NCBI GenBank assembly: GCA_020697715.1
Contig: JAEHCO010000006.1
Span: 13,941-77,940, forward strand
DNA length: 64,000 bases
Source of the DNA: Methanobacteriota archaeon
Lineage (GTDB): Archaea; Thermoplasmatota; Thermoplasmata; SG8-5; JAGLSY01
Direction: 5' to 3'
The notes beneath the pieces were generated by a model that was given only the letters and a program-made list of their open reading frames with translations, was not told where the DNA came from and made no database searches. Within the stretch, counting starts at the first letter, position 1, and each line of letters begins with the position of its first letter. Of the stretch, positions 1,528-43,176 are shown one piece after another. Both the position numbers and the translations under genes were made by a program.

Positions 1528-1533
1528 GTGAAC

Positions 1534-2703: not shown

Positions 2704-2733
2704 AGAAGAAATGTAATGATAATTGGAAGGTGT

Positions 2734-4065: not shown

Positions 4066-4066
4066 A

Positions 4067-7311: not shown

Positions 7312-7339
7312 TTATAGTGATTATATTATCCGATAATAG

Positions 7340-8527: not shown

Positions 8528-8583
8528 TTGTCTGAGAATTATAGATAAACCTAATTATTCATCTTTATTAGTTTAGGTTATAC

Positions 8584-8664
8584 ATGAATGACAAGATTCC
8601 TTTGTTAAAGCCATACTTTGATTCAGAAGAACTTGATGAAATTATAATGTTAATGAAGAGGTAA
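8584..8664 (+). pseudogene. N-terminal remnant of a DegT/DnrJ/EryC1 sugar aminotransferase
   Basis: MNDKIPLLKPYFDSEELDEI resembles the typical DegT N-terminus; stops after 26 aa, about 100 bp before the oppositely oriented AT-rich genes. Confidence 0.55.
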
Positions 8665-8764
8665 GGCTTCGTCTTTGGCTATAGATTATTCTTTTGTTGA
8701 AATATGCATAGGCACTATTTTTATATAAGAGAGGCAATAAATATGAGGTTATGAGACATTAATA

Positions 8765-9835
8765 TTAAGAATATTTTATTTGTTTATTTTTCATCTTCTT
8801 TTTATACCATATATTTGGTTGTCCAGTCCAAAAATCACATCCCTTGCAATCGGGAATTTTGTCCCATTGACCTGATAAATGTAATTCTCTTAAGGTATTT
8901 AACTTCGTCCCAAAATAGACTTCACGCAATGGTTTATCTTTTATATTGCCCAGTGATAATGAGCCTTTTTCACGAGATGATAAGCCAATACAACATGGAT
9001 AAATATTACCATTTTTGTCTATTGATATTGTTGTCCATAAATTATAACATGGATATCTTATTATCCTATTTTTTTCAATTGTATTTTCTTCAATTTCTAA
9101 TTCATCAAGATTTATTTCGCCTGACCAATTTACTAAAGGGCGAACATGGATCAAATCATTTTCTTCAATAAGGGGACTCCAATCTTTTTTGAATTGTTGT
9201 ACTTCATCTTTAGTCTTAGCAGTCTCTAATATTTGAATGATGAGTCTTGGGTTTTCGACACCATTTGATTTTCTTATTTCTAAAAAAGTTTTTATATTTT
9301 CAACAACTAAATCAAACTTATCATCCCCCATTAACCATTTGTAGGTCTCAGGTGTTCCTGAATTTAAACTTATTAATAATCTATCACCAATATTATTTAA
9401 CAAATTGACTAGTAATAAAGAATTACTTTTATTTAATAAAATTCCGTTCATATCAAAAATTATTGGAATGCCTGGGCATTTTTCTTTGGCATATATTATT
9501 GCCTCAGATAGATGAGGATAAAACAAGGGGTCGCCAAGACCCACAGGAGTCAATGTGGCAGATTTATTCAAATTATTAGAAATATCGTCTATTATTTTTT
9601 TATATAACTCAATATCGATATCACCAATGTCAAGATCTTTCATATTTGGACGAGGGCACATCCGACAAGTTAGATTACATTTATTTGTAAGTTCAATAAT
9701 TATTGCGTAAGGGAAATCCTTTAGTATTTGATTTCTTAACATCATGAATCTCTCTTTTTTTATTTTTTCTCTATATAAAGACGTAGAGGAAATTTTTTGT
9801 TTAACTGGCTTAGGTATTAGATTTTTCAAACTCAT
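8765..9835 (-). CDS. Radical SAM protein with SPASM/twitch domain
   Basis: ELTNKCNLTCRMCP CX3CX2C; PCYNLW...GNIYPCC...CKGC SPASM cysteines. Confidence 0.9.
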   Translation of the reverse strand: MSLKNLIPKPVKQKISSTSLYREKIKKERFMMLRNQILKDFPYAIIIELTNKCNLTCRMCPRPNMKDLDIGDIDIELYKKIIDDISNNLNKSATLTPVGLGDPLFYPHLSEAIIYAKEKCPGIPIIFDMNGILLNKSNSLLLVNLLNNIGDRLLISLNSGTPETYKWLMGDDKFDLVVENIKTFLEIRKSNGVENPRLIIQILETAKTKDEVQQFKKDWSPLIEENDLIHVRPLVNWSGEINLDELEIEENTIEKNRIIRYPCYNLWTTISIDKNGNIYPCCIGLSSREKGSLSLGNIKDKPLREVYFGTKLNTLRELHLSGQWDKIPDCKGCDFWTGQPNIWYKKKMKNKQIKYS

Positions 9836-9926
9836 TAAAATTCAATATGTATTTAGACTATTTGAAATTATCCTCTTAATAAAACAATTATGAGTTTCTT
9901 ACTTGTGGTTAATATGAAGTATTTGT

Positions 9927-11438
9927 CTATGGCTTTAATTTGTTAAGAAATTTTTTAACATCATTTTTTTCAGAATTATCTAGGCTAAATGTGAAAAATA
10001 ATCCAAAATAAATGCAAACTCCAATAAGCCCTTCAATTCCCAGGGATATAATATTAGTTGGTGGAAGGAAATTAAGCAGGAAAAACATACTAATGCCCAT
10101 AATTGCGGCAGGAATATAGGTAGTTATAACCACTGCCATGAAATATTTTCGGAGATTGAATCCTAGGTGTTTAATCACATATGAAGCAACAAATGGGGAG
10201 CTTACAACCCATGGAATGGCAGTACCCAAAACAACACCAGTTACACCATAATATTGTACAAGTATCAAACTCAAGATGAGATTGGAAACAGTGACGAAAA
10301 CCAGCGGTATCAAAATCAACTTATATTTTTCCTGTGCAAACAGAATCTTTCCACTAATTCCGCCATAAGATGTGAAGAATGTGTAAAATATAAATATCCT
10401 GGTTGGGAAAACCATATCCAAAAATTTATCACCCATCCAGAAATGAATTATTGGCTCAGCAAATACAAAAATCAAAGTCCCAGTTAATAATGCTATAGCA
10501 CATGTGTATTTAGAACCCCTAATTAACAGACGTTCCAACTCCTCTTTTTTATTCATAGTATCTAGTTCGGTAGCAGCTGGAAGAAGTGCACTTTGAGGAA
10601 GTAAAGTAGCAGTGCTGACAAGATCAAATAATTTTCTAGCAACTGCGTAAGATGTTATAGCCCCTACTGAAACATAAAAGCCTACTAAAATCCTGTCCAA
10701 ACCTAACATTAGAATTCCCATTATTTGGCTGATAAAAATTACAGAGCTGAAAGTGAATATTTTCTTCAATGTGGAAAAACCCATATATTTGAATCTTAAA
10801 TCCAGATAGGGTAAAAGACGTTGAACAGGAATAACCAGGGCAATCTGACCAATTGCACCTATTACTATTCCCCAGAATATTATCTCTGTTATTCCATAAC
10901 CACTGATTAAGATCAATACTGTGGCAATTGCATTTATAATACTAATAATAAAAACCCTGACTGCATTTATGTCATGTCTCTGCATACCAGATAGTACCGT
11001 GGCGAAGCTACGCATGGGCCATGATGTTAAAGCACCAATAGCAACAAGGTAAGCGATTAAGCGAGCTTTATCACCTTGGCTTTGATCTATGTTAAATATA
11101 TCAACGAAAAAAGTTCCAATGATCATTATGGATATGAATATCACAATGCCCACACATAGATAGAATATGAAAGTGGAATTCACCATTTTATTAATGGTTT
11201 CTTTATCATCCTTAGCATTGAATTCTGCTACGTATTTAACCAGAGCGCTTCCAACTCCGAAATCCAGCAAGCCAAAGTATCCAATAAATGCCCCGACAAG
11301 GAGGTAAACCCCATAATCTTCAACACCGACATAGCTGACGATAAATGGGAACAATAAAAACCCAATAATATATTGTGAAAATTTCAATAGAGTATTGGCA
11401 ATAGTGTTTTTAATAATCTTTTTCTTGACACTTGCCAT
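9927..11438 (-). CDS. Wzx/MOP-family oligosaccharide flippase
   Basis: Multiple TM helices; KNTIAN...GVEDYG...LDFGVGSALVKYVA, DRILVG and YGVTGVVLGT motifs. Confidence 0.9.
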   Translation of the reverse strand: MASVKKKIIKNTIANTLLKFSQYIIGFLLFPFIVSYVGVEDYGVYLLVGAFIGYFGLLDFGVGSALVKYVAEFNAKDDKETINKMVNSTFIFYLCVGIVIFISIMIIGTFFVDIFNIDQSQGDKARLIAYLVAIGALTSWPMRSFATVLSGMQRHDINAVRVFIISIINAIATVLILISGYGITEIIFWGIVIGAIGQIALVIPVQRLLPYLDLRFKYMGFSTLKKIFTFSSVIFISQIMGILMLGLDRILVGFYVSVGAITSYAVARKLFDLVSTATLLPQSALLPAATELDTMNKKEELERLLIRGSKYTCAIALLTGTLIFVFAEPIIHFWMGDKFLDMVFPTRIFIFYTFFTSYGGISGKILFAQEKYKLILIPLVFVTVSNLILSLILVQYYGVTGVVLGTAIPWVVSSPFVASYVIKHLGFNLRKYFMAVVITTYIPAAIMGISMFFLLNFLPPTNIISLGIEGLIGVCIYFGLFFTFSLDNSEKNDVKKFLNKLKP

Positions 11439-11613
11439 ACAAGTATGTTGAGATTTAGCTTGATATAAATAAGTTTCCATTTCAAATATATAAAATGTAT
11501 TGCCAGATAAAGAAGAAAAAACGAAAGGTTTAAGTGCGATTGTATATATGTGTATTTAACTTGGATGACTAGGTGGAGTTTAGTCAACTAAATATAAAGG
11601 AGTGAGGAAAAAT

Positions 11614-29123: not shown

Positions 29124-29448
29124 GTTACCAGTCTCTAAATAGGCTTGATCAGGTCAAATCCTAATGTATATTTTAGATATGCACAAGAAGCTGGCATTCC
29201 TGTTTCGGGATCTGTATCAGATACAAGATCCCGCTCATCATACGAATTGAGTACGATATCAGTTAGATATGTAGGGTTTATACATATATACATAAACCTT
29301 TTAATAACAAGTATAAATAGTTTTAAGTATAACTTCAATAATTGGTATATTGGATGGGTTTTGCACTCATATTGAATGGGTCCATGCTCATATAATGATA
29401 TGAGAAAGTGCGCTGGAGAAGGCGGACTATGACTCAAAAACAAGGGTG

Positions 29449-31539
29449 ATGAAGATGAGAAAAATATTTGCGATCGCATTAGGAATGGTGATGTTATTGT
29501 CTATAACATCAATATTTGTAGTTGGTGACACCGAGCCAAATGATAGCTTCGCGGAAGCTGACTACACCTATGATGGCGACATAATAAGTGGGACATTGAA
29601 TGAATTTACAGATGAATATGACTATTACAGGATGTGGCTGACAGCGGATAATACCGTCAGTATCACCATGTCCAGTTATGCAGATGATTTCGATATGGAA
29701 CTCTATGATAGTGACATGGATTTCTCAATTGATGAATCTACAGATTGGGATTCGAATGAATTGATCATCTATACAGTATCTACAAGTGGATATTATTACT
29801 TAGAGGTCTATGCAGTTAGTGGCTCTGGCAGTTACACACTTTACATAAATGTGGAATCAGCTGCCTCGGATGATGGTAATGACGACTTCTGGGAAGCGGA
29901 TTACACCTATGATGGAGACACGATCTACGGATTATTGGATCAAAGCTCTGACTATGCGGATTATTATCGACTATGGGTGAGTGAGGATGAGACCATCACT
30001 GTCACCATGACAGGCACAGGGGATGACTTTGACATATTCCTGTATGATTACATGGAGAACAATGTCGATTATTCTGATAATAGTGGCACCTCCACCGAAG
30101 AGATAATCTACAAGGTTTTGTCAAGTGGTAATTACTACATAGAGGTCGTTGCATCGTCAGGAGATGGTGATTACACATTGAATGTAGATGCTGCTTATGA
30201 TCTAAGTGCCACTGGCTCCGGTCCAGCTGCCGATGTTCCAGATTGGAACGTGGGCCAGGAATGGGCCTTTGGAAACGTAGTGGATATAGAAAAGGTTCTG
30301 AATCCATATATTGAGGACACACTGACCCAATTGGATGCATTCGGCTTCGAGACCGTCTTTGATATAAATGGAGGAGCGGGATTACTATTTGGAATAGAAG
30401 TAACGGATGACAGCACCATGGTCAATGGAGAAGAGTGCTATGATACAACTGTGAACGCGGCTGTAGCCATTGACTTCGACATGGAGGCTTCTGTTGATGG
30501 AGCCACATCATTATTCGGCCCAAGGATCATCGCGGAAGGTGAAGGTACCGCATCCGGAGAAGGAGAGATCGTCGTAGCAGGAAACGTATACTTCACAAAA
30601 GACAAGCTGGCAATAGCAAAGATCGACCTTAAGATATCAGCTGAGATCGTTGCAGAGGCTTACATGGATGCTACCGTGACAGTCGATGGAGATACAGAGT
30701 TCATCGAATTTGATGCAGAGTTCTCTGCCGAAGATGTTGAGGTCAATTTGAAAATGAACTTTGATCCGCCAATAGACCTGTTCGACTTCCCTATAATGGA
30801 GGGTGATGTCTGGTATGTGCCTCATACAGGAACAGACACATGGGGAAGCGTAACCGCATCTGGTGTCGTTAGGATGGACGTGTCCGGAAATGGACCAGAT
30901 GGAGCAGTCATTAACGAGAGAGAGGTCGAATACCTGAATGACCTGAATGATGGTAACTTCGAAAGCTACATAGATGGTGGACCAGGACGATATGGTGGAG
31001 GCACCTTGTTCGAATGTACTGATCTTACTGGCGATGTTTACACTATCGAATATTACAATGACAACTCCATGGACATATTTGGAACCAGGCAAGACACTGG
31101 CATTATGAACACATTGAGCACTATCCAGGACTCGACAGCAGGTGTTCAGTTCGATGCTTCTTCCGGATTCGTAACCGGTATAACGGTCAATGGAGACACT
31201 ATAACGGATACCGCGACAATGGATGAGGTAGAGGACTTCACAGCAGATCCACAGGGAGAGGTCGATGAGGTCATTGACGGCGGCAGTGGAGCATTCGGCA
31301 TACTTCTGATAATCATCATAGTCGTTGTCGTTGCAGTTGTCATGATGGTGGTCATAATGAACAAGAAGAAATCAAAACAGCCACCACAACATCATCAGCC
31401 ACAGCCATACGGTGGGCAACAAAGCCATCAGCCTTATGATGGTCACCAGCAGCCACCACCACCGCCACAGCACACTCCTGAGCAATACCCGCCTCAGGAA
31501 AATCATCAGCAACCACCACCACCGCCACCACAATATTGA
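29449..31539 (+). CDS. Membrane-anchored surface protein with two PPC domains and Pro/Gln-rich cytoplasmic tail
   Basis: EPNDSF...DYYR...DFDMELYD...SGYYYLEV...GSYTL repeated twice; C-terminal TM; QQPPPPP tail. Confidence 0.8.
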   Translation: MKMRKIFAIALGMVMLLSITSIFVVGDTEPNDSFAEADYTYDGDIISGTLNEFTDEYDYYRMWLTADNTVSITMSSYADDFDMELYDSDMDFSIDESTDWDSNELIIYTVSTSGYYYLEVYAVSGSGSYTLYINVESAASDDGNDDFWEADYTYDGDTIYGLLDQSSDYADYYRLWVSEDETITVTMTGTGDDFDIFLYDYMENNVDYSDNSGTSTEEIIYKVLSSGNYYIEVVASSGDGDYTLNVDAAYDLSATGSGPAADVPDWNVGQEWAFGNVVDIEKVLNPYIEDTLTQLDAFGFETVFDINGGAGLLFGIEVTDDSTMVNGEECYDTTVNAAVAIDFDMEASVDGATSLFGPRIIAEGEGTASGEGEIVVAGNVYFTKDKLAIAKIDLKISAEIVAEAYMDATVTVDGDTEFIEFDAEFSAEDVEVNLKMNFDPPIDLFDFPIMEGDVWYVPHTGTDTWGSVTASGVVRMDVSGNGPDGAVINEREVEYLNDLNDGNFESYIDGGPGRYGGGTLFECTDLTGDVYTIEYYNDNSMDIFGTRQDTGIMNTLSTIQDSTAGVQFDASSGFVTGITVNGDTITDTATMDEVEDFTADPQGEVDEVIDGGSGAFGILLIIIIVVVVAVVMMVVIMNKKKSKQPPQHHQPQPYGGQQSHQPYDGHQQPPPPPQHTPEQYPPQENHQQPPPPPPQY

Positions 31540-31717: not shown

Positions 31718-33289
31718 GTGTTAATCTCCATTCTTGACGGATATACAGATGAACCTTCGAGGCTGGGAGTTCCTCCCTTCATAGCAGGATATCCAAGATA
31801 CATCGCGGGTGCTGTGATATCAGCTGGCCATGATGTAGAATACATCACCATCGATCAGTTGAGAAAGGGTCGTACACCTTCATCAGAACTGCTTTTCATA
31901 ATATCAAATGCGAATGTCCCGGGCAAGTATCTCAGAGGAACACCAATATCAGAAAGAGAGCTATTGCAGATAAGAAAAGACTTCAAAGGCCAGGTCCATG
32001 TATGGAGTTCCTTGGATGCAAAGGGCGACCCAGATGCCTTGGCCTATGACATTCTCACGAATGAATATGAAAAACCAAGAAGAAGAACATTAAAGGAATG
32101 GAAGAATTGGTCCGAAGCAGGAGCCAGTATGTTAGAACAGCATCCTGATTTCCCCCAGCCCGCGATCATGGAGATGGATATGTCCTTCGGATGTCCGAGA
32201 TATGTAACTGGAGGATGTAGTTTCTGCCCGGAGATCGGATTTGGCCAGCCTGTTTTCAGACCAATAGCGGATATAATATCCGAGATGCAAGCACTCGTCA
32301 AACAAGGAGCTACCAATTTCAGGTTGGGTGGCCAGTCCTGCCTTTTCACCTATATGACGGAAGAGCTGGGTGAGGATGCCCCGAGGCCGAATGTCAAGGC
32401 ACTGAAGGAATTATTCGAAAAGATCGGCCAGCTTGATGGCATCGAGATCCTGCATACTGACAATGCCAACCCGGGAATCATGGCCAGCCATCCGGAAGAC
32501 ACGAGGGAGATCCTCGAATCCCTTGTCAAGGTATGTACTGGAGGAAATTTACTCTCAATGGGCATGGAAAGCGCAGATCCAGCAGTCATAAAGGCGAACA
32601 ACCTCAATGCAACTCCTGACCAGGTCATGTCCGCGATCAGGATGGTAAATGATATCGGTGGCGAGAGGGCGGACAATGGAATGCCAAAACTGCTTCCGGG
32701 ATTGAACCTTGTCGCGGGCCTTGAAGGCGAGACTGTAGATACCTTCGACCTGAACTTCAAATTCCTCAAAGAGGTACTGGATGAGGGATTGATGTTGAGA
32801 AGGATCAATATAAGACAAGTGGCCTCCACAAGAAAGAATTTTGGGCCATCACGACTGAAAAAGGATTTTATCAGATTCAAGAACCTGGTGAGAGAGGAGA
32901 TAGATGCCCCTATGTTGAAGAAAGTGATACCCACTGGCACGATATTGAGAAATGTCTACATGGAGACCAATAGAGGCAAAAGGAGCTTTGGAAGGCAGAT
33001 CGGGACTTATCCGATACTTGTTGGTATGGAGTATGAAGTGGAATTGGAAAGATCGTTAGATCTCCGGATAGTATCACATGGACAGAGGAGCATCACCGGG
33101 ATAGAACATCCCTTTGATATCAATAAGGCGAAAATGCAGGCACTTGCCTCACTGCCAGGCATTGGGAAGAAAAGAGCGGCAAGGATAATCAGATCCAGAC
33201 CATATGGTTCGATTGAAGAATTGGAAAAGGTAATAGAAGATCCTTTGGTGATGGAAGGTCTTGAGGCCTTAGGCCTTGTGTTCAGATAG
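31718..33289 (+). CDS. Radical SAM protein with C-terminal helix-hairpin-helix (COG1031-like)
   Basis: ILDGYTDEP..LGVPP, CPRYVTGGCSFC, RRINIRQV and DIN.A....LASLPGIGKKRA motifs. Confidence 0.88.
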   Translation: MLISILDGYTDEPSRLGVPPFIAGYPRYIAGAVISAGHDVEYITIDQLRKGRTPSSELLFIISNANVPGKYLRGTPISERELLQIRKDFKGQVHVWSSLDAKGDPDALAYDILTNEYEKPRRRTLKEWKNWSEAGASMLEQHPDFPQPAIMEMDMSFGCPRYVTGGCSFCPEIGFGQPVFRPIADIISEMQALVKQGATNFRLGGQSCLFTYMTEELGEDAPRPNVKALKELFEKIGQLDGIEILHTDNANPGIMASHPEDTREILESLVKVCTGGNLLSMGMESADPAVIKANNLNATPDQVMSAIRMVNDIGGERADNGMPKLLPGLNLVAGLEGETVDTFDLNFKFLKEVLDEGLMLRRINIRQVASTRKNFGPSRLKKDFIRFKNLVREEIDAPMLKKVIPTGTILRNVYMETNRGKRSFGRQIGTYPILVGMEYEVELERSLDLRIVSHGQRSITGIEHPFDINKAKMQALASLPGIGKKRAARIIRSRPYGSIEELEKVIEDPLVMEGLEALGLVFR

Positions 33290-33504: not shown

Positions 33505-36500
33505 TCATTCATTCACTTCCTTTTTTTCCTTTCTTCTAAATCCTATAAATGTTATACCCATTATCCCCAGAGCCAATGGCAATATGGATGAGAATTCCGG
33601 AATTATGACAACGGTTATGGTTGCGGAGTCCGATTGCTCAGCGAACTGGTATCCACCAGGTGATGTGTAGTTAAGGGAAGCCCAGTTCGTTATGGTGCCA
33701 GCAGGTGCGAGAGCATCCACCAGGACAGTGATCGTGAGGGAATTGACCGTGTTCTTTCTCACATTGGGGAAATACCAGGAATAATCATCGACCACTATCG
33801 AATCAGGTGCCGAGCTGGAAGATACGTATGTCGTGCCAGCAGGTATGGTATCATTTATCCACACATTGGCAGGTGCCCCGCCTGTATTGTTGTACCAGAT
33901 GGTGTATACCACTTCTGTTCCAGGAGCGGCAGTGGTGGTGTTCGCCACCTTCACGATGGTGATATCAGGTCTCGCACATTCCGTGGATGCGCTATCTGAA
34001 TCACTGCCATAAGGAACTCCTGCGGCATCTGTGAAGTCCACATCCACATTATTTACGAGGTTGGTACCATCAGCCACTGTGTCATCCACCTGGACCACGA
34101 TGTCGAAGGTGATGGTGGTTCCGCCGGCCAGGTTCGTGAATGGATAGGTGTATGTCTGCCCATTTATAGTGGGGGATATACCACTTGTATCGCTTATGTA
34201 AGTGACACCAGTGGGCAGAGTGTCATTCAGCCAGACATACGCGGATGTTGCGGAATTCCTCTTATTCTCCAATGTGATGGTGTAGGAGATATAATCTCCA
34301 GGTTCGGCAGTCCGGAGATCCGCATCCTTAGAGACAGATACCTGAGGAACTGGAGGTGGTTTGGGCAATGGTACATCACCAGGAGGTGCGGAACGTGTCC
34401 CAGATGGCGCCTGAGCATTGTGAGACATCGTATCATCACTCTGATCTATCGAATGCTTCCAATCTGATATCTCGATGAATACCGAAAATTCATCCATGGA
34501 GTTCAGACCCATCATGGATAGAGGGATGCCCATTTCCATCCTGTGATAATCAAGATCAGATGATATGGTCCCAATATATTCCCATGGTATGGAATTGGTT
34601 GGCAAGTATGTGAAAAGTTCACTGGATATGATCTTATTGTTTCTTCCGGCGATCAGAACCATGTGATCCGCTCCCAAGATCCCACCTTTGTAATCACCTG
34701 TGCTTACATCGTTATCTGAGTCAATGAAGATGCTTAGATAGTCCTGTCCGATGATCTCCACATGCCCTATTGGGCCGATATATCTACTTATGAAGTTCCC
34801 TGAATAATTTGGGTCAAAGTCCAAAGGTATGGTCGTATTCAACCACATATCTGGACCATCATTATTGTAATCAATAACACCATCGCCATCAATATCCCCA
34901 TTGGAATTCTGGTCATCTATGCCATCATTATTGAAATCATAGGCATAGCTTCCATTTGGTCCATCGATATTGTTAGGGACACCATCATTGTCAGAATCCG
35001 GCAGAGGTGCAGGTGTGATGGGTGACACATTGGTAACAGGCGCAATGCCTGGACGATATCTTATCGTCGGCACATCCATGCCTCCCATTGCCACCCCAGA
35101 AAGTGAAGTGTATATCAACAGGCGATCATCCACTGACATCCTGTAATCTCCTATATCGACATTACGATTGATACGGCTGGTGTTGGTGTCCGAGGCACCA
35201 ACAACATCATTGGCTGCATCGATATTGCTTCCTATCCCAAGCCAATCTCCGAAAGCACCATCAATTTCGATGTTCTCCGGATCTCCAATATTGTGAACTG
35301 CTCCTGAATTCTCAGCAATATGTACCTTGATACCATCTGGAACCAGAACATCAGTAAGATAAACACCGACATTGGGGGCATCTGTGGATACAGGTATATC
35401 GAAGATCAGGAAGATGGATACCCGCTCTCCAGCCTCTATTGTCAAAGGCCTATCGAAATTAATAGTAAAATCACCACCATCACCTGTCATGGTGGTCTCC
35501 AATACCTGGTCACTGGAAGCATCGTATATCTGGTTGCCTTCATCCACAACCAGTCTGAGACCTATCATTTCTTCATAACCAAGCTCTCCCCTGGAGCTGA
35601 ATGCAAGGCCTTCGACATCCGAATCCAGACCAAAGCTCTCCAATAGTAAAAGGCTGGCATCATGATCTCCAGGCTGAATTATATCGCTGTCAACAGCCTC
35701 GGACATGCTCGCTCTCAATGTTCCTCTCAGGGGCGAGATTACAGAATCGGATATATCAAAGTGCCCGAAGGAATCCTGCATCATGATAGCATAAGATGGC
35801 TGGGATGAGGGTGTCAGTTCATCAAGGATCACCCTTATCTCCATCTCATTATCATTGACAGCTGCATTTGCTTCATGGGAGTATTCAAATGCATTCCAAT
35901 CATTATGATCCATATCATTATTGAACCTCTTCAGATCTATCTCGGATATTCTATTTCCCCATCCTTGAACATCCAGAAGTACATCCGCACCCATATTGGA
36001 TATCTCATATCCCGTGGACGTATCTGAGTCCGTGTCGATGAATATGAAAACAGAATCCAGACCTCTAACAGAATCACTTGATGAACCTCCCAGAAGATCA
36101 CCTTCGACCATGATGTAAAAGTACATGTTCGGAGGGCGGAAATTGACCCTTGTTTCAATGATGTTCAGATCATCATTGGATATCTGGTCAATTGAAGAAT
36201 CATGATAGGATGTGAATTCCCTCCACTCGGAGAAATCACCATCGATATCCATGCCATATGTGTCATCACCTATCATGGAATTGGTCAATATAGGAAGGAA
36301 CAACATGATGAATATCAGAGCGGCCATCATGGTCACTCTCATCCTCCAAGCGGATGACGCATTGGATTTGATGTTCTTACGGTGCGCCCTGCCCCGGTTA
36401 TTTGCGAGAGCATCACCATTTATCAGACCCATGCCATTTACAAGACCATTGACACGACCATTGACCAGTCCTGAGAGGCGGCCATTGATCAGGCCATTGG

Positions 36501-39500
36501 TGCTACCAGTGGCATGCCCGGTTGTTCCAAAAGCATGACCATTGATCATACCGCCAGAACCATTGATGAGGCCATTCACCCTGCCATTTACAAGACCATT
36601 AACACGGCCGTTCACAAGGCCATTGATGCCACCAATGACGCGACCATTGACCAGCCCATTGGTCCTTCCATTGGTCTTACCGTTCACGCGGCCATTGGTT
36701 TTCCCAAAGGCATGGCCATTTGTTCTTCCATTGACGTGGCCATTGGTCTTGCCGTTCACACGACCGTCGACTGTTCCGACAGCACGGCCATTGACCTTGC
36801 CATTCACACGCCCAGTCCCATTTATCAGACCTGCGGGCGTCTTGCCAGTTTTCTTAAGTGACTCTGCCTCGATCTCCTCATAGGAGCTATGGATCACCTG
36901 GTCATAGCATTCGAGAGCGGCCTCATGCAGACCCAGCTTATCCAATAATTCTCCCTTTTCCATAAGCAGGCTTTCAGTTCCCGGGAAAAGTTCCAGGTCT
37001 TTGTCTATGTCTATCAAGCGGGCTTTTATTATCCCAACACCCGGATCTGGAGCCTCATCCAGCTCGAGGTCCAGAAGATCGTCCTCATCATCGGGAATAA
37101 CAGATCCATGTAATATTTCCAATATCTGTTTTTTGTATTCCGGGGCCTTCTCATCATCTAACTCCGCTGCCTTATCATAGCATGATATTGCTTCATCAAA
37201 ACTGCCGGCCTTTGCCAGGAGCCTTGCTTTCCTTGCCCAGTGAATGTGATTATCTGGGTCTTCTTTGATCTTCTCATCCAGAGCATCCAAGTCCTCGAGG
37301 ATAATGACCTCGCCAATATCCATGTCTATATCTACGACATCGGGTAAAGAGAGATCATCATCGGTCTCATCTTCATCCATTCCAAGGAATTGTTTTATGA
37401 AGTCATCGGTCGGGCCAGAAGGTTTTGTATCCTCTTCTGGCTCATCACCAAGTTTTGACCAGCGAGATAGGAAATCTTTGGATATCCCTCTCTTTTCCTC
37501 TTTGGTCTCGAGCTCTGGCAGGATAAGATCAGATTCCATTTCCTCAAGAACATCCATTTCGGATAATTCTTCATCAGTATCGTCGTCTGCAAGTGAGTCC
37601 ACCATGGATCCCAGGCCGACCTTGGGATCGGGCTCGGCCTGATCAACTAGGATATCTGAATCGTCACCATCTGGCTCATCATCATCATCTTCCTCATCGA
37701 TCAAAATATCAATGGGATCGTCCAGGTCCAATGAGATATTTTCAATAATATCTTCATCAGAAATTATCTCGGATAATATTGGCTCATCGATATCAAGCTC
37801 AAGTTCATCTGTTTCCGTCGTGAATAGCTCGATGCCATCTATATCGAAGCTGTCATCCTGGGCGATGATATCCTCCAGGAGTTTTTCTCCCAGTATATCT
37901 CTTTCATCCAGATCATCAGATGCGGCATCTGCAGTTGCATCATCTTCAGATACTGCATCTGATTCGAATCCATCAAGAACATCCGCAATGTCCAGATCGA
38001 CAGCGATGTCCTCAAGGGTGATGATATCAGGTTCATCAATATCAAGTTCAAGCTCATCGGATACTTCCTCAGCATCACTTATTATGATCCCACAATCCGG
38101 GCATTCTGAAAGTTCTGCCTGGACAAAGGAGCCACAGCCAGGACACAGGTTGAGTTCCGAAACACTCTCCTCCCATTCCATATCCTGAATGAGCTGGGCT
38201 TCAGCATCCTTTTTATCACTCACCTCGACCAGAAGGTCAGAAAGCTCCTCGATCTCCCGTTCAGCCCTGACCTCTTTATCCAGGTCGATCTCCACATCCA
38301 GGTCTTCATCGTATACGGCTCCACAATTGGAACACTTGCCAGCATCCTCAGCCAGAAGAGCACCACATTCGACACATAGGAATATCTGGGTCTTCTCTTC
38401 CTTGTACCAGTATCCATCTGGTTCATCAGGATCTATACTGACATCATCGGATGGATCAAGCTGTGAGATAGGAATATCACCATCTGGCTCGAATTCCGCA
38501 TGGCATATGTCACAACTGCTTGCTCCGCCAGATAAGAAAGCACCGCAATTAGGGCAGAGAAATAGCTCAGCTTCATCCTTGTACCAATGGCCATCAAGAT
38601 CTGTATCGGTCTTTTCCACCAGCATGTCGGCCAGTTCCTCTGTATCCGCATCCAGCTCAAGAGCAGGTTCTTCAATATTGGGGTCGAACTTCACACCACA
38701 ATTATTACAACTACTGGCATCCTCAGAGATCAGTGCCCCACACTCGGGGCACATGAAGAACTGGCTCTTCTCCTCTTTGTACCAGAAGCCATCTGGAGCA
38801 TCTGGATCCCTCGCAATTTCAGGTTCCATATCCGTATCTGGCTCGACCTCTCCATCATCAGCCTCGAACACTATGCCACAGTATTGACAACTATCAGCGG
38901 CAGAAGATATGAAAGACCCACAATTGGGACAGAGAAATAGCTCGACCTCATCCTTGTACCAGTGGCCATCCAGCTCATCCAGGTCAGATGATCCTCCCTC
39001 CAGTTCATCATCGTGGAGGAGCATATCTGCCAGTTCTTTTAACTCACTGCCATCTTCAATAGATATGGCAGTTCCCAATTCGATCTGATCATCATCGATG
39101 CCATGGTCATCATCGAGATCAAGGTCCGCATCTGCGATCATGGTCAATTCATCTGTCAGGATGTCCTCATCTTCAGACCCTATTGGGACGGTTGCTTCAT
39201 CTGCACTCGCAACCTCTTCTTCATCATGGCTGGTGAACTCTTCCAACATATCGAGTATGTCTGGATCGGATGTCGTGGTCTCTGGCGGAAGTGGTTCCTT
39301 ATCAAGCTCCGATCTTAGCTTTTCTTCTGTAAATGACAGGCCACATGTATCACATTCCGAGGCATTTCCGGATATAAATGCACCACAATCAGGACATAGG
39401 AATAGCTCGGCCTTGTCCCTGTACCAGAAGCCATCTATGTCATCATTCTTTTCCTCTTTTTCAGTGCCATCGACCAATAGGTCCATAAGGTCTTCCGACT

Positions 39501-40410
39501 CCTTATCTGGCTGGATCTCTGGTTCGGTCTCATCCATATCGAACTTGATCCCGCAATTAGAGCATTTTTCAGCGTCCTCCGAGATCAGGGAGCCGCATTC
39601 GGGGCAGAGTAAGAACTGACTCTTCTCTTCCTTGTACCAATATCCATCCGGAGCATCGGGATCCCTTGCGACCTCCAGGTCAGGACTGGCAGCTACCTCA
39701 TCAGCAGTCTCATCATCAGCCTCGAACACTACTCCACATTTGGAGCAATTGCCCGCATCTGAAGGTATGAAAGACCCACAATTGGGGCAGAGGAAAAGCT
39801 CGGCCTCATCCTTGTACCAGTGGCCATCGATATCACCATCTGCCTTTTCCACCAGCATATCTGCCAGTTCCTGTGATTCCGCATCCACTTCGGAAGTTTC
39901 TGGAGATACATCCTCCATATCGGGGTCGAATTTCACGCCACAATTATTACATTTACTGGCATCCTCAGAAATAAGTGCCCCACAATCGGGGCACATGAAG
40001 AACTGGCTCTTCTCCTCTTTGTACCAGAAGCCATCTGGAGCGTCTGGATCCATCTCCTGGGCAGGGGTTTGGGAAACCTCCTCCTCGCCTTCGAAGGCGA
40101 TGCCACAATTCGGGCAATTGTCTGTATCCTCTCCCAGAAGTGATCCACACATTGGACACATTGTCAGTCCTGTGCTTGTTTCCAGCTTATCGGATGGTTC
40201 TTCATCCACATCCACCATCATCTCCGCATAGTCCCTTATGCTGTATGCGAGACTCTTACCTATGCCAGGTATCCCAGAGAGTTCATCAAATGGACATTCG
40301 ACAAGTTCCTGCAATGACCTGAAACCCGCGGAGTATAGAATTCGAGCTTTTGCTCTTCCTATACCCGGTATGAGCAATAATTCTACAAGATGGTCATCAC
40401 TAGTAGACAT
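33505..40410 (-). CDS. Giant multidomain membrane protein: HhH, 10 Zn-ribbons, acidic linkers, TPR, (xxNG)n, TM, ectodomain with DUF11 repeats, PEF-CTERM
   Basis: IPGIG twice; ten CxxC-x10-CxxC; FDEAISCYDKA; xxNG repeats; internal TM; SVSKDAD/ITIVKVA DUF11 starts; IPEF-TM-RRK C-terminus. Confidence 0.85.
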   Translation of the reverse strand: MSTSDDHLVELLLIPGIGRAKARILYSAGFRSLQELVECPFDELSGIPGIGKSLAYSIRDYAEMMVDVDEEPSDKLETSTGLTMCPMCGSLLGEDTDNCPNCGIAFEGEEEVSQTPAQEMDPDAPDGFWYKEEKSQFFMCPDCGALISEDASKCNNCGVKFDPDMEDVSPETSEVDAESQELADMLVEKADGDIDGHWYKDEAELFLCPNCGSFIPSDAGNCSKCGVVFEADDETADEVAASPDLEVARDPDAPDGYWYKEEKSQFLLCPECGSLISEDAEKCSNCGIKFDMDETEPEIQPDKESEDLMDLLVDGTEKEEKNDDIDGFWYRDKAELFLCPDCGAFISGNASECDTCGLSFTEEKLRSELDKEPLPPETTTSDPDILDMLEEFTSHDEEEVASADEATVPIGSEDEDILTDELTMIADADLDLDDDHGIDDDQIELGTAISIEDGSELKELADMLLHDDELEGGSSDLDELDGHWYKDEVELFLCPNCGSFISSAADSCQYCGIVFEADDGEVEPDTDMEPEIARDPDAPDGFWYKEEKSQFFMCPECGALISEDASSCNNCGVKFDPNIEEPALELDADTEELADMLVEKTDTDLDGHWYKDEAELFLCPNCGAFLSGGASSCDICHAEFEPDGDIPISQLDPSDDVSIDPDEPDGYWYKEEKTQIFLCVECGALLAEDAGKCSNCGAVYDEDLDVEIDLDKEVRAEREIEELSDLLVEVSDKKDAEAQLIQDMEWEESVSELNLCPGCGSFVQAELSECPDCGIIISDAEEVSDELELDIDEPDIITLEDIAVDLDIADVLDGFESDAVSEDDATADAASDDLDERDILGEKLLEDIIAQDDSFDIDGIELFTTETDELELDIDEPILSEIISDEDIIENISLDLDDPIDILIDEEDDDDEPDGDDSDILVDQAEPDPKVGLGSMVDSLADDDTDEELSEMDVLEEMESDLILPELETKEEKRGISKDFLSRWSKLGDEPEEDTKPSGPTDDFIKQFLGMDEDETDDDLSLPDVVDIDMDIGEVIILEDLDALDEKIKEDPDNHIHWARKARLLAKAGSFDEAISCYDKAAELDDEKAPEYKKQILEILHGSVIPDDEDDLLDLELDEAPDPGVGIIKARLIDIDKDLELFPGTESLLMEKGELLDKLGLHEAALECYDQVIHSSYEEIEAESLKKTGKTPAGLINGTGRVNGKVNGRAVGTVDGRVNGKTNGHVNGRTNGHAFGKTNGRVNGKTNGRTNGLVNGRVIGGINGLVNGRVNGLVNGRVNGLINGSGGMINGHAFGTTGHATGSTNGLINGRLSGLVNGRVNGLVNGMGLINGDALANNRGRAHRKNIKSNASSAWRMRVTMMAALIFIMLFLPILTNSMIGDDTYGMDIDGDFSEWREFTSYHDSSIDQISNDDLNIIETRVNFRPPNMYFYIMVEGDLLGGSSSDSVRGLDSVFIFIDTDSDTSTGYEISNMGADVLLDVQGWGNRISEIDLKRFNNDMDHNDWNAFEYSHEANAAVNDNEMEIRVILDELTPSSQPSYAIMMQDSFGHFDISDSVISPLRGTLRASMSEAVDSDIIQPGDHDASLLLLESFGLDSDVEGLAFSSRGELGYEEMIGLRLVVDEGNQIYDASSDQVLETTMTGDGGDFTINFDRPLTIEAGERVSIFLIFDIPVSTDAPNVGVYLTDVLVPDGIKVHIAENSGAVHNIGDPENIEIDGAFGDWLGIGSNIDAANDVVGASDTNTSRINRNVDIGDYRMSVDDRLLIYTSLSGVAMGGMDVPTIRYRPGIAPVTNVSPITPAPLPDSDNDGVPNNIDGPNGSYAYDFNNDGIDDQNSNGDIDGDGVIDYNNDGPDMWLNTTIPLDFDPNYSGNFISRYIGPIGHVEIIGQDYLSIFIDSDNDVSTGDYKGGILGADHMVLIAGRNNKIISSELFTYLPTNSIPWEYIGTISSDLDYHRMEMGIPLSMMGLNSMDEFSVFIEISDWKHSIDQSDDTMSHNAQAPSGTRSAPPGDVPLPKPPPVPQVSVSKDADLRTAEPGDYISYTITLENKRNSATSAYVWLNDTLPTGVTYISDTSGISPTINGQTYTYPFTNLAGGTTITFDIVVQVDDTVADGTNLVNNVDVDFTDAAGVPYGSDSDSASTECARPDITIVKVANTTTAAPGTEVVYTIWYNNTGGAPANVWINDTIPAGTTYVSSSSAPDSIVVDDYSWYFPNVRKNTVNSLTITVLVDALAPAGTITNWASLNYTSPGGYQFAEQSDSATITVVIIPEFSSILPLALGIMGITFIGFRRKEKKEVNE
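36413..36831 (-). repeat. Degenerate 12-bp coding tandem repeat encoding xxNG tetrapeptides
   Basis: CCATT recurs at 12-nt period on the + strand; protein GRVNGKVNG...LVNGRVNGLING. Confidence 0.9.
38681..40051 (-). repeat. Near-identical ~130-bp internal duplications among Zn-ribbon modules (38681-38809 vs 39923-40051)
   Basis: Direct DNA match with few substitutions; offset 1242 bp, in frame. Confidence 0.85.
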
Positions 40411-40527
40411 AAGCAAGTATTGTTTGTCTTACTAAGTATATAGGCATTGTATCTCGAAAAGTAGATGTGCTATCTGCAAAATATGCGACAATATTACAAA
40501 AAGTTGTTAATCATCATATCTCGATCT

Positions 40528-41238
40528 TCATATCTCAAGAGCCGTGGAAAAGGGATCCAATCCGATATCCATAACATGTATCTCGGACTTTTGACCGATC
40601 TCCAATATCAATCGATCATTGGAACTCTTGATGACCTTGGGATCCTCGCCACCAGACCTCAATTTTTCAATGATGAAATCTCGAAAAGCTTTTGTTCGGT
40701 CATATTTGGACTCGGACATTTCCGCAAGTAATCTTGTTGGATAATATCGAGTATGGGTTCCTTCGTTCATCACACTGACAAGACCGATATTGATCAGTTT
40801 ATTGACCATTATGGACAGGCCTTGATGAGTCATTTCAAAATCCTGGGCATATTCTTTCTGGGTCATGCCAGGCTCATTTATTATCTTGATAAAAAGAGCT
40901 TTTGTCTTTTTTGAAGACAAAACGCAGAAGATATTGACATCCTCATCATCTATTTGACCCTCTGGCCACATGGATCTCTTGCGGCCTAATTTTCTCTCGA
41001 CCAAGAATCCCGAGGCCACGAGTTTGCCAATATGCCATTTGACGGTCGTATCACTCACATTCAAGATATCGGAGATATCCTTCAGTCCCAGACATGGATG
41101 AAAAGTGAGAAGAGAAAATATATTTCTCCGGATCTTATTATCGAATATCCTGGCATTCTCAGAAATTCCACCAGGTCTCTTGATATTATCAGGTTCCTTG
41201 ATCGCGCTTTCCAGAGCTTTTCCTACATTCCTACTCAT
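40528..41238 (-). CDS. Double winged-HTH transcriptional regulator
   Basis: RRNIFSLL..HP....DISDILNVSDTTVKWHIGKL and EPGMTQKE......HQGLSIMVNKL. Confidence 0.8.
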   Translation of the reverse strand: MSRNVGKALESAIKEPDNIKRPGGISENARIFDNKIRRNIFSLLTFHPCLGLKDISDILNVSDTTVKWHIGKLVASGFLVERKLGRKRSMWPEGQIDDEDVNIFCVLSSKKTKALFIKIINEPGMTQKEYAQDFEMTHQGLSIMVNKLINIGLVSVMNEGTHTRYYPTRLLAEMSESKYDRTKAFRDFIIEKLRSGGEDPKVIKSSNDRLILEIGQKSEIHVMDIGLDPFSTALEI

Positions 41239-41239
41239 C

Positions 41240-42118
41240 CTAATCTCCTTGATGTTCAGACAATATGGCATTGATCAACTCTTCGGTATTGACCTCTGAA
41301 AGGTCCCTATCTTTGAGATCCTTCAATGAATTTGCCAATCTTTTGAAAACATAGGACGGTAACTGCCCTTCGATCTTATTGAGATCAGTTGCGAATTGAC
41401 CAACTTTCTCTCGTTTTGGTATCAATGGATAATCTCCAGCCTGTACAACAAGACCAAAGCCTTTCATCAAAGAATATGGATGCTCCAGTTCACTGTGGGC
41501 ACTGGATCGGCACTTGATTATCTTCAGCTTTCTCTCCAATCTGGAACCTGCTTCGAAGCTACTTCTAAGGTGAATGACACAATCAGACAAGTACATGGGG
41601 ATCACAGTTTCATTACCCGACAGGTCGCCAACTGTGCCATGCTCCTCCAGTGTGCAGAGTACTGTTCCGACCTTTCTTGTTTCCTTCAGCATGAATCCTA
41701 TCAGATCACGTTGCTCATATCTGTCGGAAGTGGACCACACCACTGGAGTGAGAGGATCCACAGCAATTCGGGCATTAGCTCCCTTCCATGAGGATACGAA
41801 ATCAGGTAATTCCTTCTTTATGAACTGAGAGAACTCCTGACCACTGGCATCGATAAAGACAAGCTTGTCCTCCTCGATGAAGTTCAGGATCTCCGTCCAA
41901 CCCATCTCGATAGCTTCCTTGATGATCTGCTCCTTGTTCTCATCAAGGCTTACGAATATCCCTTCCTGGCCTGCTTCGAGGCCGCGTCTTATGAATTGAG
42001 TTGCGAAGGTGGTCTTTCCCGCCCCGCTCATCCCTATGACGACAGTGGTAGAATTCTCATTGATGCCTCCATCCAGAAGGGCATTGAGTCCGTAAATACC
42101 ACTGCTTATTTTCTTCAT
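41240..42118 (-). CDS. KaiC/RAD55-like RecA-superfamily ATPase
   Basis: SSGIYGLNALLDGG, GMSGAGKT, SLDE, IAVD and LKIIKCRSSAH motifs. Confidence 0.9.
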   Translation of the reverse strand: MKKISSGIYGLNALLDGGINENSTTVVIGMSGAGKTTFATQFIRRGLEAGQEGIFVSLDENKEQIIKEAIEMGWTEILNFIEEDKLVFIDASGQEFSQFIKKELPDFVSSWKGANARIAVDPLTPVVWSTSDRYEQRDLIGFMLKETRKVGTVLCTLEEHGTVGDLSGNETVIPMYLSDCVIHLRSSFEAGSRLERKLKIIKCRSSAHSELEHPYSLMKGFGLVVQAGDYPLIPKREKVGQFATDLNKIEGQLPSYVFKRLANSLKDLKDRDLSEVNTEELINAILSEHQGD

Positions 42119-42159: not shown

Positions 42160-43176
42160 TCATAGGCCTCGATTCTGAAGTATTTGGTCATCAGGTATCT
42201 GTCCGATATCAAGTCCTGGCATCGCATTACCAAGTCCCATGGAAACTTCAGTTAGTGTTTTTGCATCCTCGTAGTTCGTGACAGCATCGGCGATCGACTT
42301 GGCCATCTTCTGAGGATCGCTTGATTTGAATATTCCAGAGCCAACGAACACGCCATCGCAACCCATGCTCATCATCAGGCTTGCATCTGCGGGTGTCGCT
42401 ATTCCACCAGCAGCGAAGTTAACGACTGGCAGTCTACCCAGGTCTCTGATCTCTATCAAAATAGCTTTAACATCGGCCTCCCAATCGGCCAATGTTCTTC
42501 CGCCAAAGACGATCGCATCGGCCGCGGTCTCAGCATCGCACCATTCCTCGCGGGTCGCTGATTCCAATTTTCCAAATGGCAGAGCGTATGTGTGGGCCAC
42601 GGCGTTTAACTTTTCCTCGTCGATGGTCTTCAGATTCTCGATCATCCTGTTCACCAGGTGCATGTGCCTGACAGCCTCAACAACATTGCCGGTGCCAGCC
42701 TCGCCCTTGGTCCTTATCATGGCCGCGCCCTCGGCGATACGTCTGACAGCCTCACCCAGATAGGTGCAACCACAGACGAAAGGAACTGTGAATTCTGATT
42801 TATTGATGTGATAATATGGATCTGCTGGAGTTAGGACCTCGGACTCGTCTATCATGTCCGCGCCCATGGACTCCCAAATTCGAGCTTCTGTAAAATGGCC
42901 AATTCTAACTTTGGCCATCACCGGAATACTTACCTCGTCCAGTATCTCCTGGAGCTTGGTCGGATCCGCAGCTCTAGCCACTCCACCCATGGCTCGAATA
43001 TCCGATGGCACACGCTCGAGGGACATCACGGCCACTGCGCCTGCGTCCTCCGCGATCCTGGCCTGTTCCGCTGTAACGACGTCCATTATGACGCCGCCTT
43101 TCTGCATCTTGGCAAATCCTCTTTTTAGAAGTTCGGTCCCGTGTCTGAATGAAGTTAGGTCTATGTCAATTGGCAA
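42160..43176 (-). CDS. pdxS: Pyridoxal 5'-phosphate synthase lyase subunit
   Basis: [36 protein letters not shown] and [11 protein letters not shown] motifs; TTG start with GGTGA SD. Confidence 0.96.

Follow-up and report, generated by a model that had tools for sequence, protein, structure and literature searches.

A conserved cassette of a giant bitopic surface protein, a KaiC-like ATPase and a double winged-helix regulator in Thermoplasmata as a candidate route from cell surface to gene control

A stretch of 64,000 nucleotides from contig JAEHCO010000006.1 of a Thermoplasmatota archaeon (assembly GCA_020697715.1), called the window in what follows, carries three genes in the same orientation that code for a single-domain KaiC-like ATPase, a protein with two winged helix-turn-helix (wHTH) domains and, downstream of these two, a giant protein of about 2,300 residues (Table 1). 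The giant protein together with its KaiC and wHTH partners is a real, conserved and uncharacterised system. For its mechanism we favour, at about even chances, a reading in which this protein acts as a surface-binding receptor or adhesin, its cytoplasmic tail docks KaiC-family ATPases and the wHTH protein is the transcriptional output. The inputs to the signalling hubs that KaiC-like ATPases are proposed to form in archaea are largely unknown, and this cassette ties a KaiC ATPase and a transcription factor to a putative surface receptor of the sugar-binding type, the evidence for the receptor link being wholly genetic, namely synteny, domain fusion and the match between head and partner. It suggests that in uncultured Thermoplasmata the cell surface may be connected with gene control by a route not yet studied. 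What we believe to be newly described here is a widespread family of giant bitopic surface proteins of the archaeosortase type, with CBM9-like ectodomains and modular tails, that would serve as an input device for KaiC. A literature search in a limited library found no description of this family architecture, and Makarova, Galperin and Koonin (2017) may list related ones.

The earlier note on this DNA, made from the sequence alone, had described the giant gene as a single open reading frame (ORF) of about 2,300 codons and this holds, the frame being intact over 2303 residues. Translation probably starts at the ATG at 40410, as an identical database protein (P0005) has 2301 residues. When the whole length was used as the query, 37 database proteins matched at E<=1e-3 and about 25 of these were full length with the same domain set; they are 1,500 to 2,800 residues long, and every named one comes from a metagenome-assembled genome (MAG) of Thermoplasmata or Thermoplasmatota. 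An ortholog from the same genus is 80% identical across residues 1-2299 and is without stops. That the ORF is an assembly chimera is ruled out by collinear orthologs in many Thermoplasmata MAGs. The KaiC-like and double-wHTH genes that had been reported upstream are likewise present in the same orientation as the giant gene and overlap each other by 32 nt.

Synteny was examined from both ends of the cassette. At 16 loci from other genomes that hold an ortholog of the giant gene, the wHTH gene was found in 16 of 16 and the KaiC gene in 14 of 16, both misses being loci without upstream DNA. The survey that started from KaiC covered 80 loci at 51-89% KaiC identity in MAGs labelled Thermoplasmata, Methanomassiliicoccales, SG8-5, RBG-16 and DHVE2. 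The wHTH gene came next in 61 of the 74 loci with enough DNA, the two genes overlapping or lying within a few nt of each other, and the giant gene came next in 38 of 63. The co-occurrence of all three genes across Thermoplasmatota, which the earlier note had proposed to survey, therefore recurs and is clade-specific: the giant gene was next in 22 of 22 loci at KaiC identities of >=65%, in 15 of 23 at 60-64% and in 1 of 18 below 60%. Of the two arrangements the KaiC-wHTH pair is thus the older, and the triad belongs to one clade. Similar arrangements are also found around paralogs. A 2917-aa paralog of the source genome (C11:211720) has its own KaiC gene (52% identity) and wHTH gene, 77 nt upstream of a 1767-aa paralog with an inactivated KaiC head (C11:61357) there is a gene for a KaiC-like protein, and in two other genomes a second pair of genes for a KaiC-like and an xxNG protein lies just downstream of the ortholog. 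Two kinds of variant locus were also seen. At L107:695-2167 and at L109, L111, L115, L118, L123 and L128, where the KaiC orthologs have 60-64% identity, the next gene codes for a CPxCG-related zinc-finger protein of 197-204 aa (PF19769, 174 bits for that of L107), which replaces the wHTH and giant genes and echoes the CPxCG ribbons of the giant tail. At L116:10001-20681 (CP070767.1) the best KaiC match spans residues 1-228 only (77% identity). Here the wHTH and giant genes are preceded by an ORF of 1466 aa that has PQQ-like beta-propeller and PKD domains and a C-terminal end similar to the C-terminal extension of KaiC; the cassette may have undergone rearrangement or fusion.

The KaiC gene product scores 123.3 bits on PF06745 (cut-off 26.6) and its best PDB matches are KaiC CI domains (E 1e-34). 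Its Walker A motif GMSGAGKT, residues D59-E60 and the Walker B motif (L86-VFIDA) are invariant in 28 orthologs, over which the mean column identity is 74% and a 65-aa C-terminal extension is conserved. Judged from this alignment, the stand-alone KaiC looks catalytically intact and highly constrained. It is not of the cyanobacterial circadian type, being of a single domain and scoring 74.5 bits on circ_KaiC against a cut-off of 546; KaiB was not sought. The wHTH protein has HTH_24 at aa 45-90 (38.3 bits) and MarR_2 at aa 131-167 by Pfam, and its profile matches ArsR/SmtB/MarR structures on both halves. A prediction of the complex of KaiC, the wHTH protein and the helix-hairpin-helix (HhH) head of the giant protein (residues 1-85), made with alignment inputs, returned a score of 0.00, which is no answer and counts neither way. 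As a separate observation, a paralog of the double-wHTH gene (G000:C1:9765-11067, locus L073) lies directly downstream of a gene for a 174-aa Ras-family small GTPase and not of KaiC, and the regulator type may there be paired with another NTPase; glycosyltransferase and flippase genes and an ArtC-like archaeosortase gene (C1:5365-6612) are near this pair.

The giant protein belongs to a family whose core is the xxNG run, the transmembrane (TM) helix and the module that begins with IDGxFxxW. Five proteins in the source genome share this core and differ in their heads and distal ectodomains; one paralog has FG-GAP repeats, and lamin-tail domains also occur in family paralogs. With the core (residues 1190-1570) as the query, 268 database proteins matched at E<=1e-5. 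In the sampled genomes of the class, 99 of 201 had a match at E<=1e-10, often in many copies (at least 9 were scored in several genomes), and several whole families were without a match in the genomes searched. The precomputed Pfam lists also hold PF28085, PF26408 and PF27618, which are probably in the N-terminal half because they are missing from the C-terminal partial homolog P0007. It is in this family that the tail is found joined to the KaiC fold. PF06745 is present in 28 of the 120 listed core-family proteins by hand count from the precomputed Pfam lists, and the fused proteins have the domain order KaiC, TPR, Zn ribbon, xxNG, TM and ectodomain. When family proteins were scored with a home-made hidden Markov model, KaiC-type heads (called iKaiC heads below) were found in 23 of 133 and HhH heads in 77 of 133, with both on one protein in a single case. 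In order to avoid selection through KaiC, 40 further giants were picked by the core match alone. KaiC and wHTH genes lay upstream of 9 of the 13 giants with HhH heads, of 1 of the 11 with iKaiC heads and of 2 of the 16 with other heads. A lone KaiC gene abutted 6 of the iKaiC-headed giants and none of the others, and neither arrangement was present at 4, 4 and 14 loci, respectively. Thus head type tracks the upstream gene, HhH heads going with KaiC and wHTH and iKaiC heads with a lone KaiC, and this suggests that the head is a socket for the protein encoded just upstream. We infer from these data that the tail would physically bind its partner. The functional link of the giant protein to KaiC and wHTH, which the earlier note had put forward, gains support from the synteny and from the fusions of KaiC-family domains to paralogous tails. 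Within the source genome the fused iKaiC heads have their nearest relatives (E 1e-22 to 1e-42) in two soluble proteins with degenerate-P-loop KaiC-like domains (G000:C11:47137-48693 and C11:381461-384040), one with a TPR region and the other with two KaiC-like repeats.

On the outer side, the parts that had been read from the sequence were all confirmed: the basic patch before a TM helix, the two IDGxFxxW modules (IDGDFSEW at aa 1391 and IDGAFGDW at aa 1718), the DxDxDG motifs, the two DUF11 repeats, which exceed their cut-offs in both databases, and the C-terminal end, with IPEF at 2272-2275, a hydrophobic segment at 2267-2293 and then RRKEKK. Five DxDxDG-like motifs lie within aa 1807-1854 of module 3, and their D/G columns are invariant. 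A topology with the N-terminus inside, the ectodomain outside and the C-terminus inside fits the sequence because there is no signal peptide, a basic patch precedes TM1, the cysteine-rich Zn ribbons lie on the N side and a basic tail follows TM2; both topology and processing are predictions. The anchoring at both ends of the ectodomain that had been proposed is consistent with this layout, and an archaeosortase-family gene is present in the genome. Archaeosortase substrates (PGF-/PEF-CTERM proteins such as the Haloferax S-layer glycoprotein) likewise have a short motif, a TM helix and a basic cluster, and the source genome has archaeosortase-family genes. In typical substrates, however, the N-terminus carries a signal peptide and a cytoplasmic domain is lacking, whereas the giant protein keeps an N-terminal signal-anchor and a giant cytoplasmic tail and would therefore be held at both ends after processing.

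The modelling by segment that had been suggested resolved three ectodomain modules and two TPR-like units and predicts the xxNG run to be disordered. The ectodomain model (AF2, residues 1386-2020, 635 aa, from a 19-sequence alignment) has a mean pLDDT of 82.4, and its folds were compared per domain by VIA structural alignment. Module 1 matched CBM9 1i82 at Z 11.5 (rmsd 3.7, 151 aligned residues) and 2ivf_C at Z 11.2. Module 2 matched adhesin, cohesin and integrin-leg domains at Z 8-10. Module 3 matched the starch-adherence protein Sas6 (7uwu) at Z 12.7 (rmsd 3.3, 171 aligned residues), followed by a Bacteroides carbohydrate-binding protein (4jpq) at Z 11.2. The predicted folds of modules 1-3 are thus like those of CBM9/DOMON-like modules and of the Ig domains of MSCRAMMs or integrin legs. 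They differ from known CBM9/DOMON-like modules in that they have no sequence-family match, with no Pfam or NCBIfam match at E<=0.1 over aa 1386-2020, and in that they are not attached to an enzyme. No usable match to the ectodomain came from the ESM Atlas, and Foldseek with the whole 635-aa model returned only multi-domain matches of low TM score (integrin alpha, PrgB, MSCRAMMs; TMq about 0.15).

Several observations weigh against the receptor reading. In 14 of 14 fused KaiC domains that were inspected the P-loop is degenerate, reading GPxGxEK and not GxxGxGKT, and these domains agree with the inactivated ones that are named 'iKaiC' in PMC5847659; therefore the fusions link the tail to the KaiC fold and not to ATPase activity. 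For 18 of the 40 giants in the sample there is no link in cis to the KaiC family. Of the nine HhH cases with KaiC and wHTH, seven are orthologs of one paralog and, since loci from related genomes are not independent, the correlation between HhH heads and wHTH comes down to about 2-3 cassette lineages. The ectodomain fold matches, at Z 11-13, tell shape and not ligand. The PEF-CTERM sorting signal that had been claimed stands in the layout of its motif but not in its score, which is 14.1 bits on TIGR03024 against a cut-off of 23, aligned over all 25 positions; a same-genome paralog (G000:C30) scores 27.8 bits on this model. The search for archaeosortase genes, which had also been suggested, found a clear ArtA (120.2 bits, cut-off 75). 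The archaeosortase tied to PEF-CTERM is ArtC (PMC5244752). The ArtC-like gene of this genome (G000:C1:5365-6612) is divergent; its 64.8 bits on archaeo_artC fall short of the cut-off of 100, and its 55.8 bits on the exo_archaeo signature exceed that of 23. Judged from the motif layout, a PEF-type C-terminal anchor on the giant protein is plausible. Finally, the KaiC-wHTH pair is without the giant gene in 25 of 63 loci, where unrelated genes come next, for example those for RpiA or a clostripain-type protease, and in seven loci a CPxCG zinc-finger gene takes the place of the wHTH gene. The pair, being found so often without the giant gene, may therefore be a general regulator that merely sits upstream.

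The last point is the basis of a simpler explanation, in which the cassette is a plain transcriptional unit, a generic KaiC and wHTH regulator, its KaiC-like ATPase modulating its transcription factor, that controls a downstream structural surface protein (an adhesin or envelope protein) with no contact between tail and KaiC and no transmembrane signal. Besides the fact that the pair is older and wider than the triad and is followed by other genes in other lineages, double-wHTH paralogs are present in multiple copies and also elsewhere, as beside the Ras-like GTPase, and the giant gene has a conserved TATA box and upstream palindrome of its own. The spacer between the wHTH and giant genes is 117 nt long, and the palindrome lies about 55 nt upstream of the TATA box. 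In 11 of 11 aligned orthologous spacers the TATA box and the ACA and TGT of the palindrome are invariant, the mean column identity being otherwise 59%. By a strict motif, 17 of 36 ortholog loci have a TATA-like hexamer at -42..-24; in GC-rich lineages the boxes are TTAATA-like and the upstream repeat is another one, and a paralogous cassette has a similar AAC-T6-GTT element. From these elements the giant gene probably has its own promoter, and the ACA-N6-TGT palindrome is a candidate site for the wHTH protein. Under the plain unit, the fusion of KaiC-family domains to paralog tails (28/120), the lone KaiC genes that abut iKaiC-headed giants (6/11) and the tracking of the upstream partner by head type would all be unexpected because the tail would be irrelevant. 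We consider the explanation rather unlikely.

The tail itself bears on a second alternative. Its tandem HhH head with IPGIG twice (aa 16 and 49), ten CxxC-x10-CxxC ribbons, acidic linkers and TPRs had been listed before and every one was found. The ribbons number exactly 10 (aa 87-775; Zn_ribbon_3, 118 bits by Pfam). The DNA of the array contains internal repeats (144 nt x4, 65-92% identity), and the array therefore grew by tandem duplication; among relatives the number of ribbons ranges from 1 to 15. Residues 791-1040 contain 97 D+E and 11 K+R. The N-terminal 1,190 residues carry a net charge of -0.241 per residue, where the median of the proteome is -0.032, and just 3 of 816 long ORFs are more acidic. 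In an AF2 model of residues 1030-1390, in which the TM helix was also modelled, the TPR-like helices have a pLDDT of about 85-90 and the xxNG run one of about 30 (aa 1190-1347). A folded beta-helix for this run is unsupported at such a pLDDT. Of the roughly 35 xxNG repeats that had been counted earlier, the run stands and the number is approximate, there being 25 exact NG dipeptides within aa 1199-1334 and 30 loose xx[NSTDIG]G tetrads. Despite the absence of a predicted fold its N/G positions are invariant in 15 orthologs, and with a net charge of +19 it is the sole basic part of the tail.

From the HhH head the earlier note had drawn the idea that the giant protein is a tether from envelope to DNA, the (HhH)2 head and the wHTH protein holding chromosomal or incoming DNA at the membrane for segregation, uptake or tethered transcription. 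The head is indeed a true (HhH)2 domain. Its profile matches include the Topo V HhH2 (5e-22), eL32, Hel308, the NusA acidic repeat (AR), UvrC and the N-terminal domain of RadA, with ComEA also among its (HhH)2 relatives, and it is N-terminal in 26 of 26 aligned triad orthologs. However, the head is net acidic (median -3, range -7 to +2 over the 26 orthologs) and is mounted on a stretch that ranks among the most acidic in the proteome. The NusA acidic repeats are (HhH)2 domains that bind proteins. In paralogs the head is dispensable: either an inactivated KaiC domain stands in its place or nothing does. The cassette has no DNA-translocation, partition or competence genes. The link to chromosomal or incoming DNA is thus unsupported, and since the head is acidic, polyanion-mounted and dispensable we have lowered this reading; we keep it as a very unlikely one because HhH heads co-occur with the wHTH gene (9/13 against 1/11 for iKaiC heads).

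A third alternative places the function in the envelope or its cortex. The giant proteins would be S-layer-like or matrix-binding anchors, and their polyanionic tails and xxNG tethers would make up a scaffold under the membrane that KaiC-family ATPases assemble, cluster or remodel from the inside out. The many copies of the family (five in this genome, at least nine scored matches in several others), the PEF-type anchor with an Ig-like/DUF11 stalk, the FG-GAP or lamin-tail domains of paralogs and the predicted disorder of the basic juxtamembrane repeat would all suit such a role. A precedent is found in GltJ of the Myxococcus Agl-Glt focal-adhesion system, whose cytosolic Zn ribbon with its linker is read by an NTPase, acts as a switch for the MglA GTPase and controls the adhesion complex (PMC11135422). 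GltJ and ZitP of Caulobacter resemble the giant protein by analogy only, in that they are bitopic with an N-terminal Zn ribbon inside that is read by a P-loop NTPase. They have one ribbon and not ten, and the NTPase is a Ras-like GTPase and not a KaiC/RecA-like ATPase; they are bacterial and are not known to have a large ectodomain of their own or an archaeosortase signal. Against a scaffold, no lattice-forming or S-layer family was among the Pfam, NCBIfam and fold matches, a range of 1 to 15 ribbons would be odd for a defined scaffold, and the inclusion of a DNA-binding regulator among the three genes speaks for gene control over pure mechanics. We consider this structural role quite unlikely.

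We therefore return to the receptor reading, which would work as follows. The giant protein would be a type-II-like bitopic membrane protein with about 900 residues outside, made of the CBM9/DOMON-like, Ig-like and Ca-loop CBM-like modules and the two DUF11 repeats, and with a PEF-type anchor at its end that is probably processed by an archaeosortase. About 1,350 residues inside would form a flexible platform of the (HhH)2 head, ten Zn ribbons on polyacidic linkers, the TPR pair and the basic, predictedly disordered xxNG tether at the membrane. This tail would engage KaiC-family ATPases. The partner here would be the active KaiC from its own gene, along with the double-wHTH protein; in paralogous cassettes the tail is headed by an inactivated KaiC domain and a lone active KaiC gene lies next to it. 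The wHTH protein would be the transcriptional output, its target probably being the conserved promoter and palindrome ahead of the giant gene, and surface engagement would be coupled to gene expression, in the presumed direction from outside to inside, through an ATP-dependent switch. A bolder and doubtful extension, which we think unlikely, is that these proteins are an archaeal counterpart of integrin/focal-adhesion signalling, with rapidly diversifying giant receptors, a swappable N-terminal plug that picks the partner and a KaiC switch that couples touch to transcription. The (HhH)2 plug would then select the double-wHTH/KaiC pair and the inactivated KaiC plug a KaiC hexamer. In the HhH class the wHTH/HhH pair might even keep promoter DNA at the membrane.

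The pairing of a KaiC-family protein with a transcription regulator has parallels. GvpD, a KaiC/RAD55-type P-loop protein of haloarchaea, acts on the transcription factor GvpE. CirA is another KaiC-family protein of haloarchaea that acts with a transcription factor, CsmR (PMC13286277). These NTPases are likewise paired with a transcription regulator, but the pairs are not known to have a transmembrane partner and the regulators come from different families. Modules of KaiC-like proteins as 'signal-transduction hubs' have been proposed for archaea by Makarova, Galperin and Koonin (2017), as cited in PMC5847659 and PMC13286277. As presented there, they resemble the cassette in having a single-domain KaiC/RadA-like ATPase gene beside a wHTH regulator, degenerate KaiC domains fused to signalling or scaffold domains, and a proposed post-translational switch on partner proteins. 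They differ in that the partner here is a giant bitopic surface protein whose tail is 1,350 aa and whose ectodomain is 900 aa long, and in that head type tracks the partner gene. The family is present in about half of the sampled Thermoplasmata genomes in several copies each, and these lineages dominate sediments and have no cultured members. The KaiC and wHTH proteins, the 75-aa head, the 117-nt promoter region and the 635-aa ectodomain are parts that can be cloned for tests of surface or polymer sensing.

Table 1. Features of the cassette, with positions in the window and residues of the giant protein
Feature	Position	Strand	Residues (aa)	Remarks
Giant bitopic surface protein gene	33505..40416	-	2303	open from TTG; probable ATG at 40410
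PEF-CTERM-like sorting signal	33508..33606	-		IPEF, TM helix, RRKEKK
Two DUF11 Ig-like repeats	33616..34335	-		PF01345 80.5 bits (cut-off 24.6); TIGR01451 68.1 bits (cut-off 24)
Ectodomain module 3, predicted CBM-like sandwich	34411..35274	-	1715-2002	starts IDGAFGDW; inserted Ca-loop cluster
Ectodomain module 2, predicted Ig/cohesin-like beta-sandwich	35275..35724	-	about 1565-1714	
Ectodomain module 1, predicted CBM9/DOMON-like beta-sandwich	35725..36261	-	1386-1564	starts IDGDFSEW
Basic patch and signal-anchor TM helix	36265..36405	-	1338-1384	hydrophobic segment 1358-1384
Basic xxNG repeat	36406..36846	-	1191-1337	predicted disordered
Two TPR-like helical hairpin units	36847..37317	-	1034-1190	TPR_1 32.7 bits
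Ribbon-free polyacidic linker	37318..38046	-	791-1033	
Ten CPxCG-type zinc ribbons on acidic linkers	38047..40179	-	80-790	
(HhH)2 head	40201..40410	-	3-72	PF14520 HHH_5 42.7 bits (cut-off 27)
TATATA box	40437..40442	-		about 30 nt before ATG; conserved CTAYAAT-like block ahead of box
Palindrome (ACA-N6-TGT), candidate operator	40496..40507	-		ACAACTTTTTGT
Double winged-helix gene	40528..41271	-	247	ArsR/MarR-like
KaiC-like single-domain ATPase gene	41240..42118	-	292	

The gene for PdxS (window 42160-43176), which has the same orientation, lies 41 nt upstream of the KaiC gene, and in several orthologous loci the distance is 9-10 nt. This adjacency is kept in the closer clade only and is probably plain conserved gene order; that PdxS is co-transcribed with KaiC is possible. 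Farther away, window positions 490-11480 form a stretch of low GC content (0.30-0.38 against about 0.45 elsewhere) with a surface-glycan cluster of genes for two GT4 glycosyltransferases, two FemAB-like acyltransferases and one GNAT acyltransferase, a radical-SAM/SPASM enzyme and a Wzx/MurJ-type flippase, together with two ORFs without a Pfam match; it may be a horizontally acquired glycosylation island. On the plus strand and convergent to the giant gene are those for a radical-SAM protein of 523 aa that has HhH_3 at its C-terminus (window 31718-33289) and for a protein of 697 aa that has two pre-peptidase C-terminal (PPC) domains (window 29446-31539).

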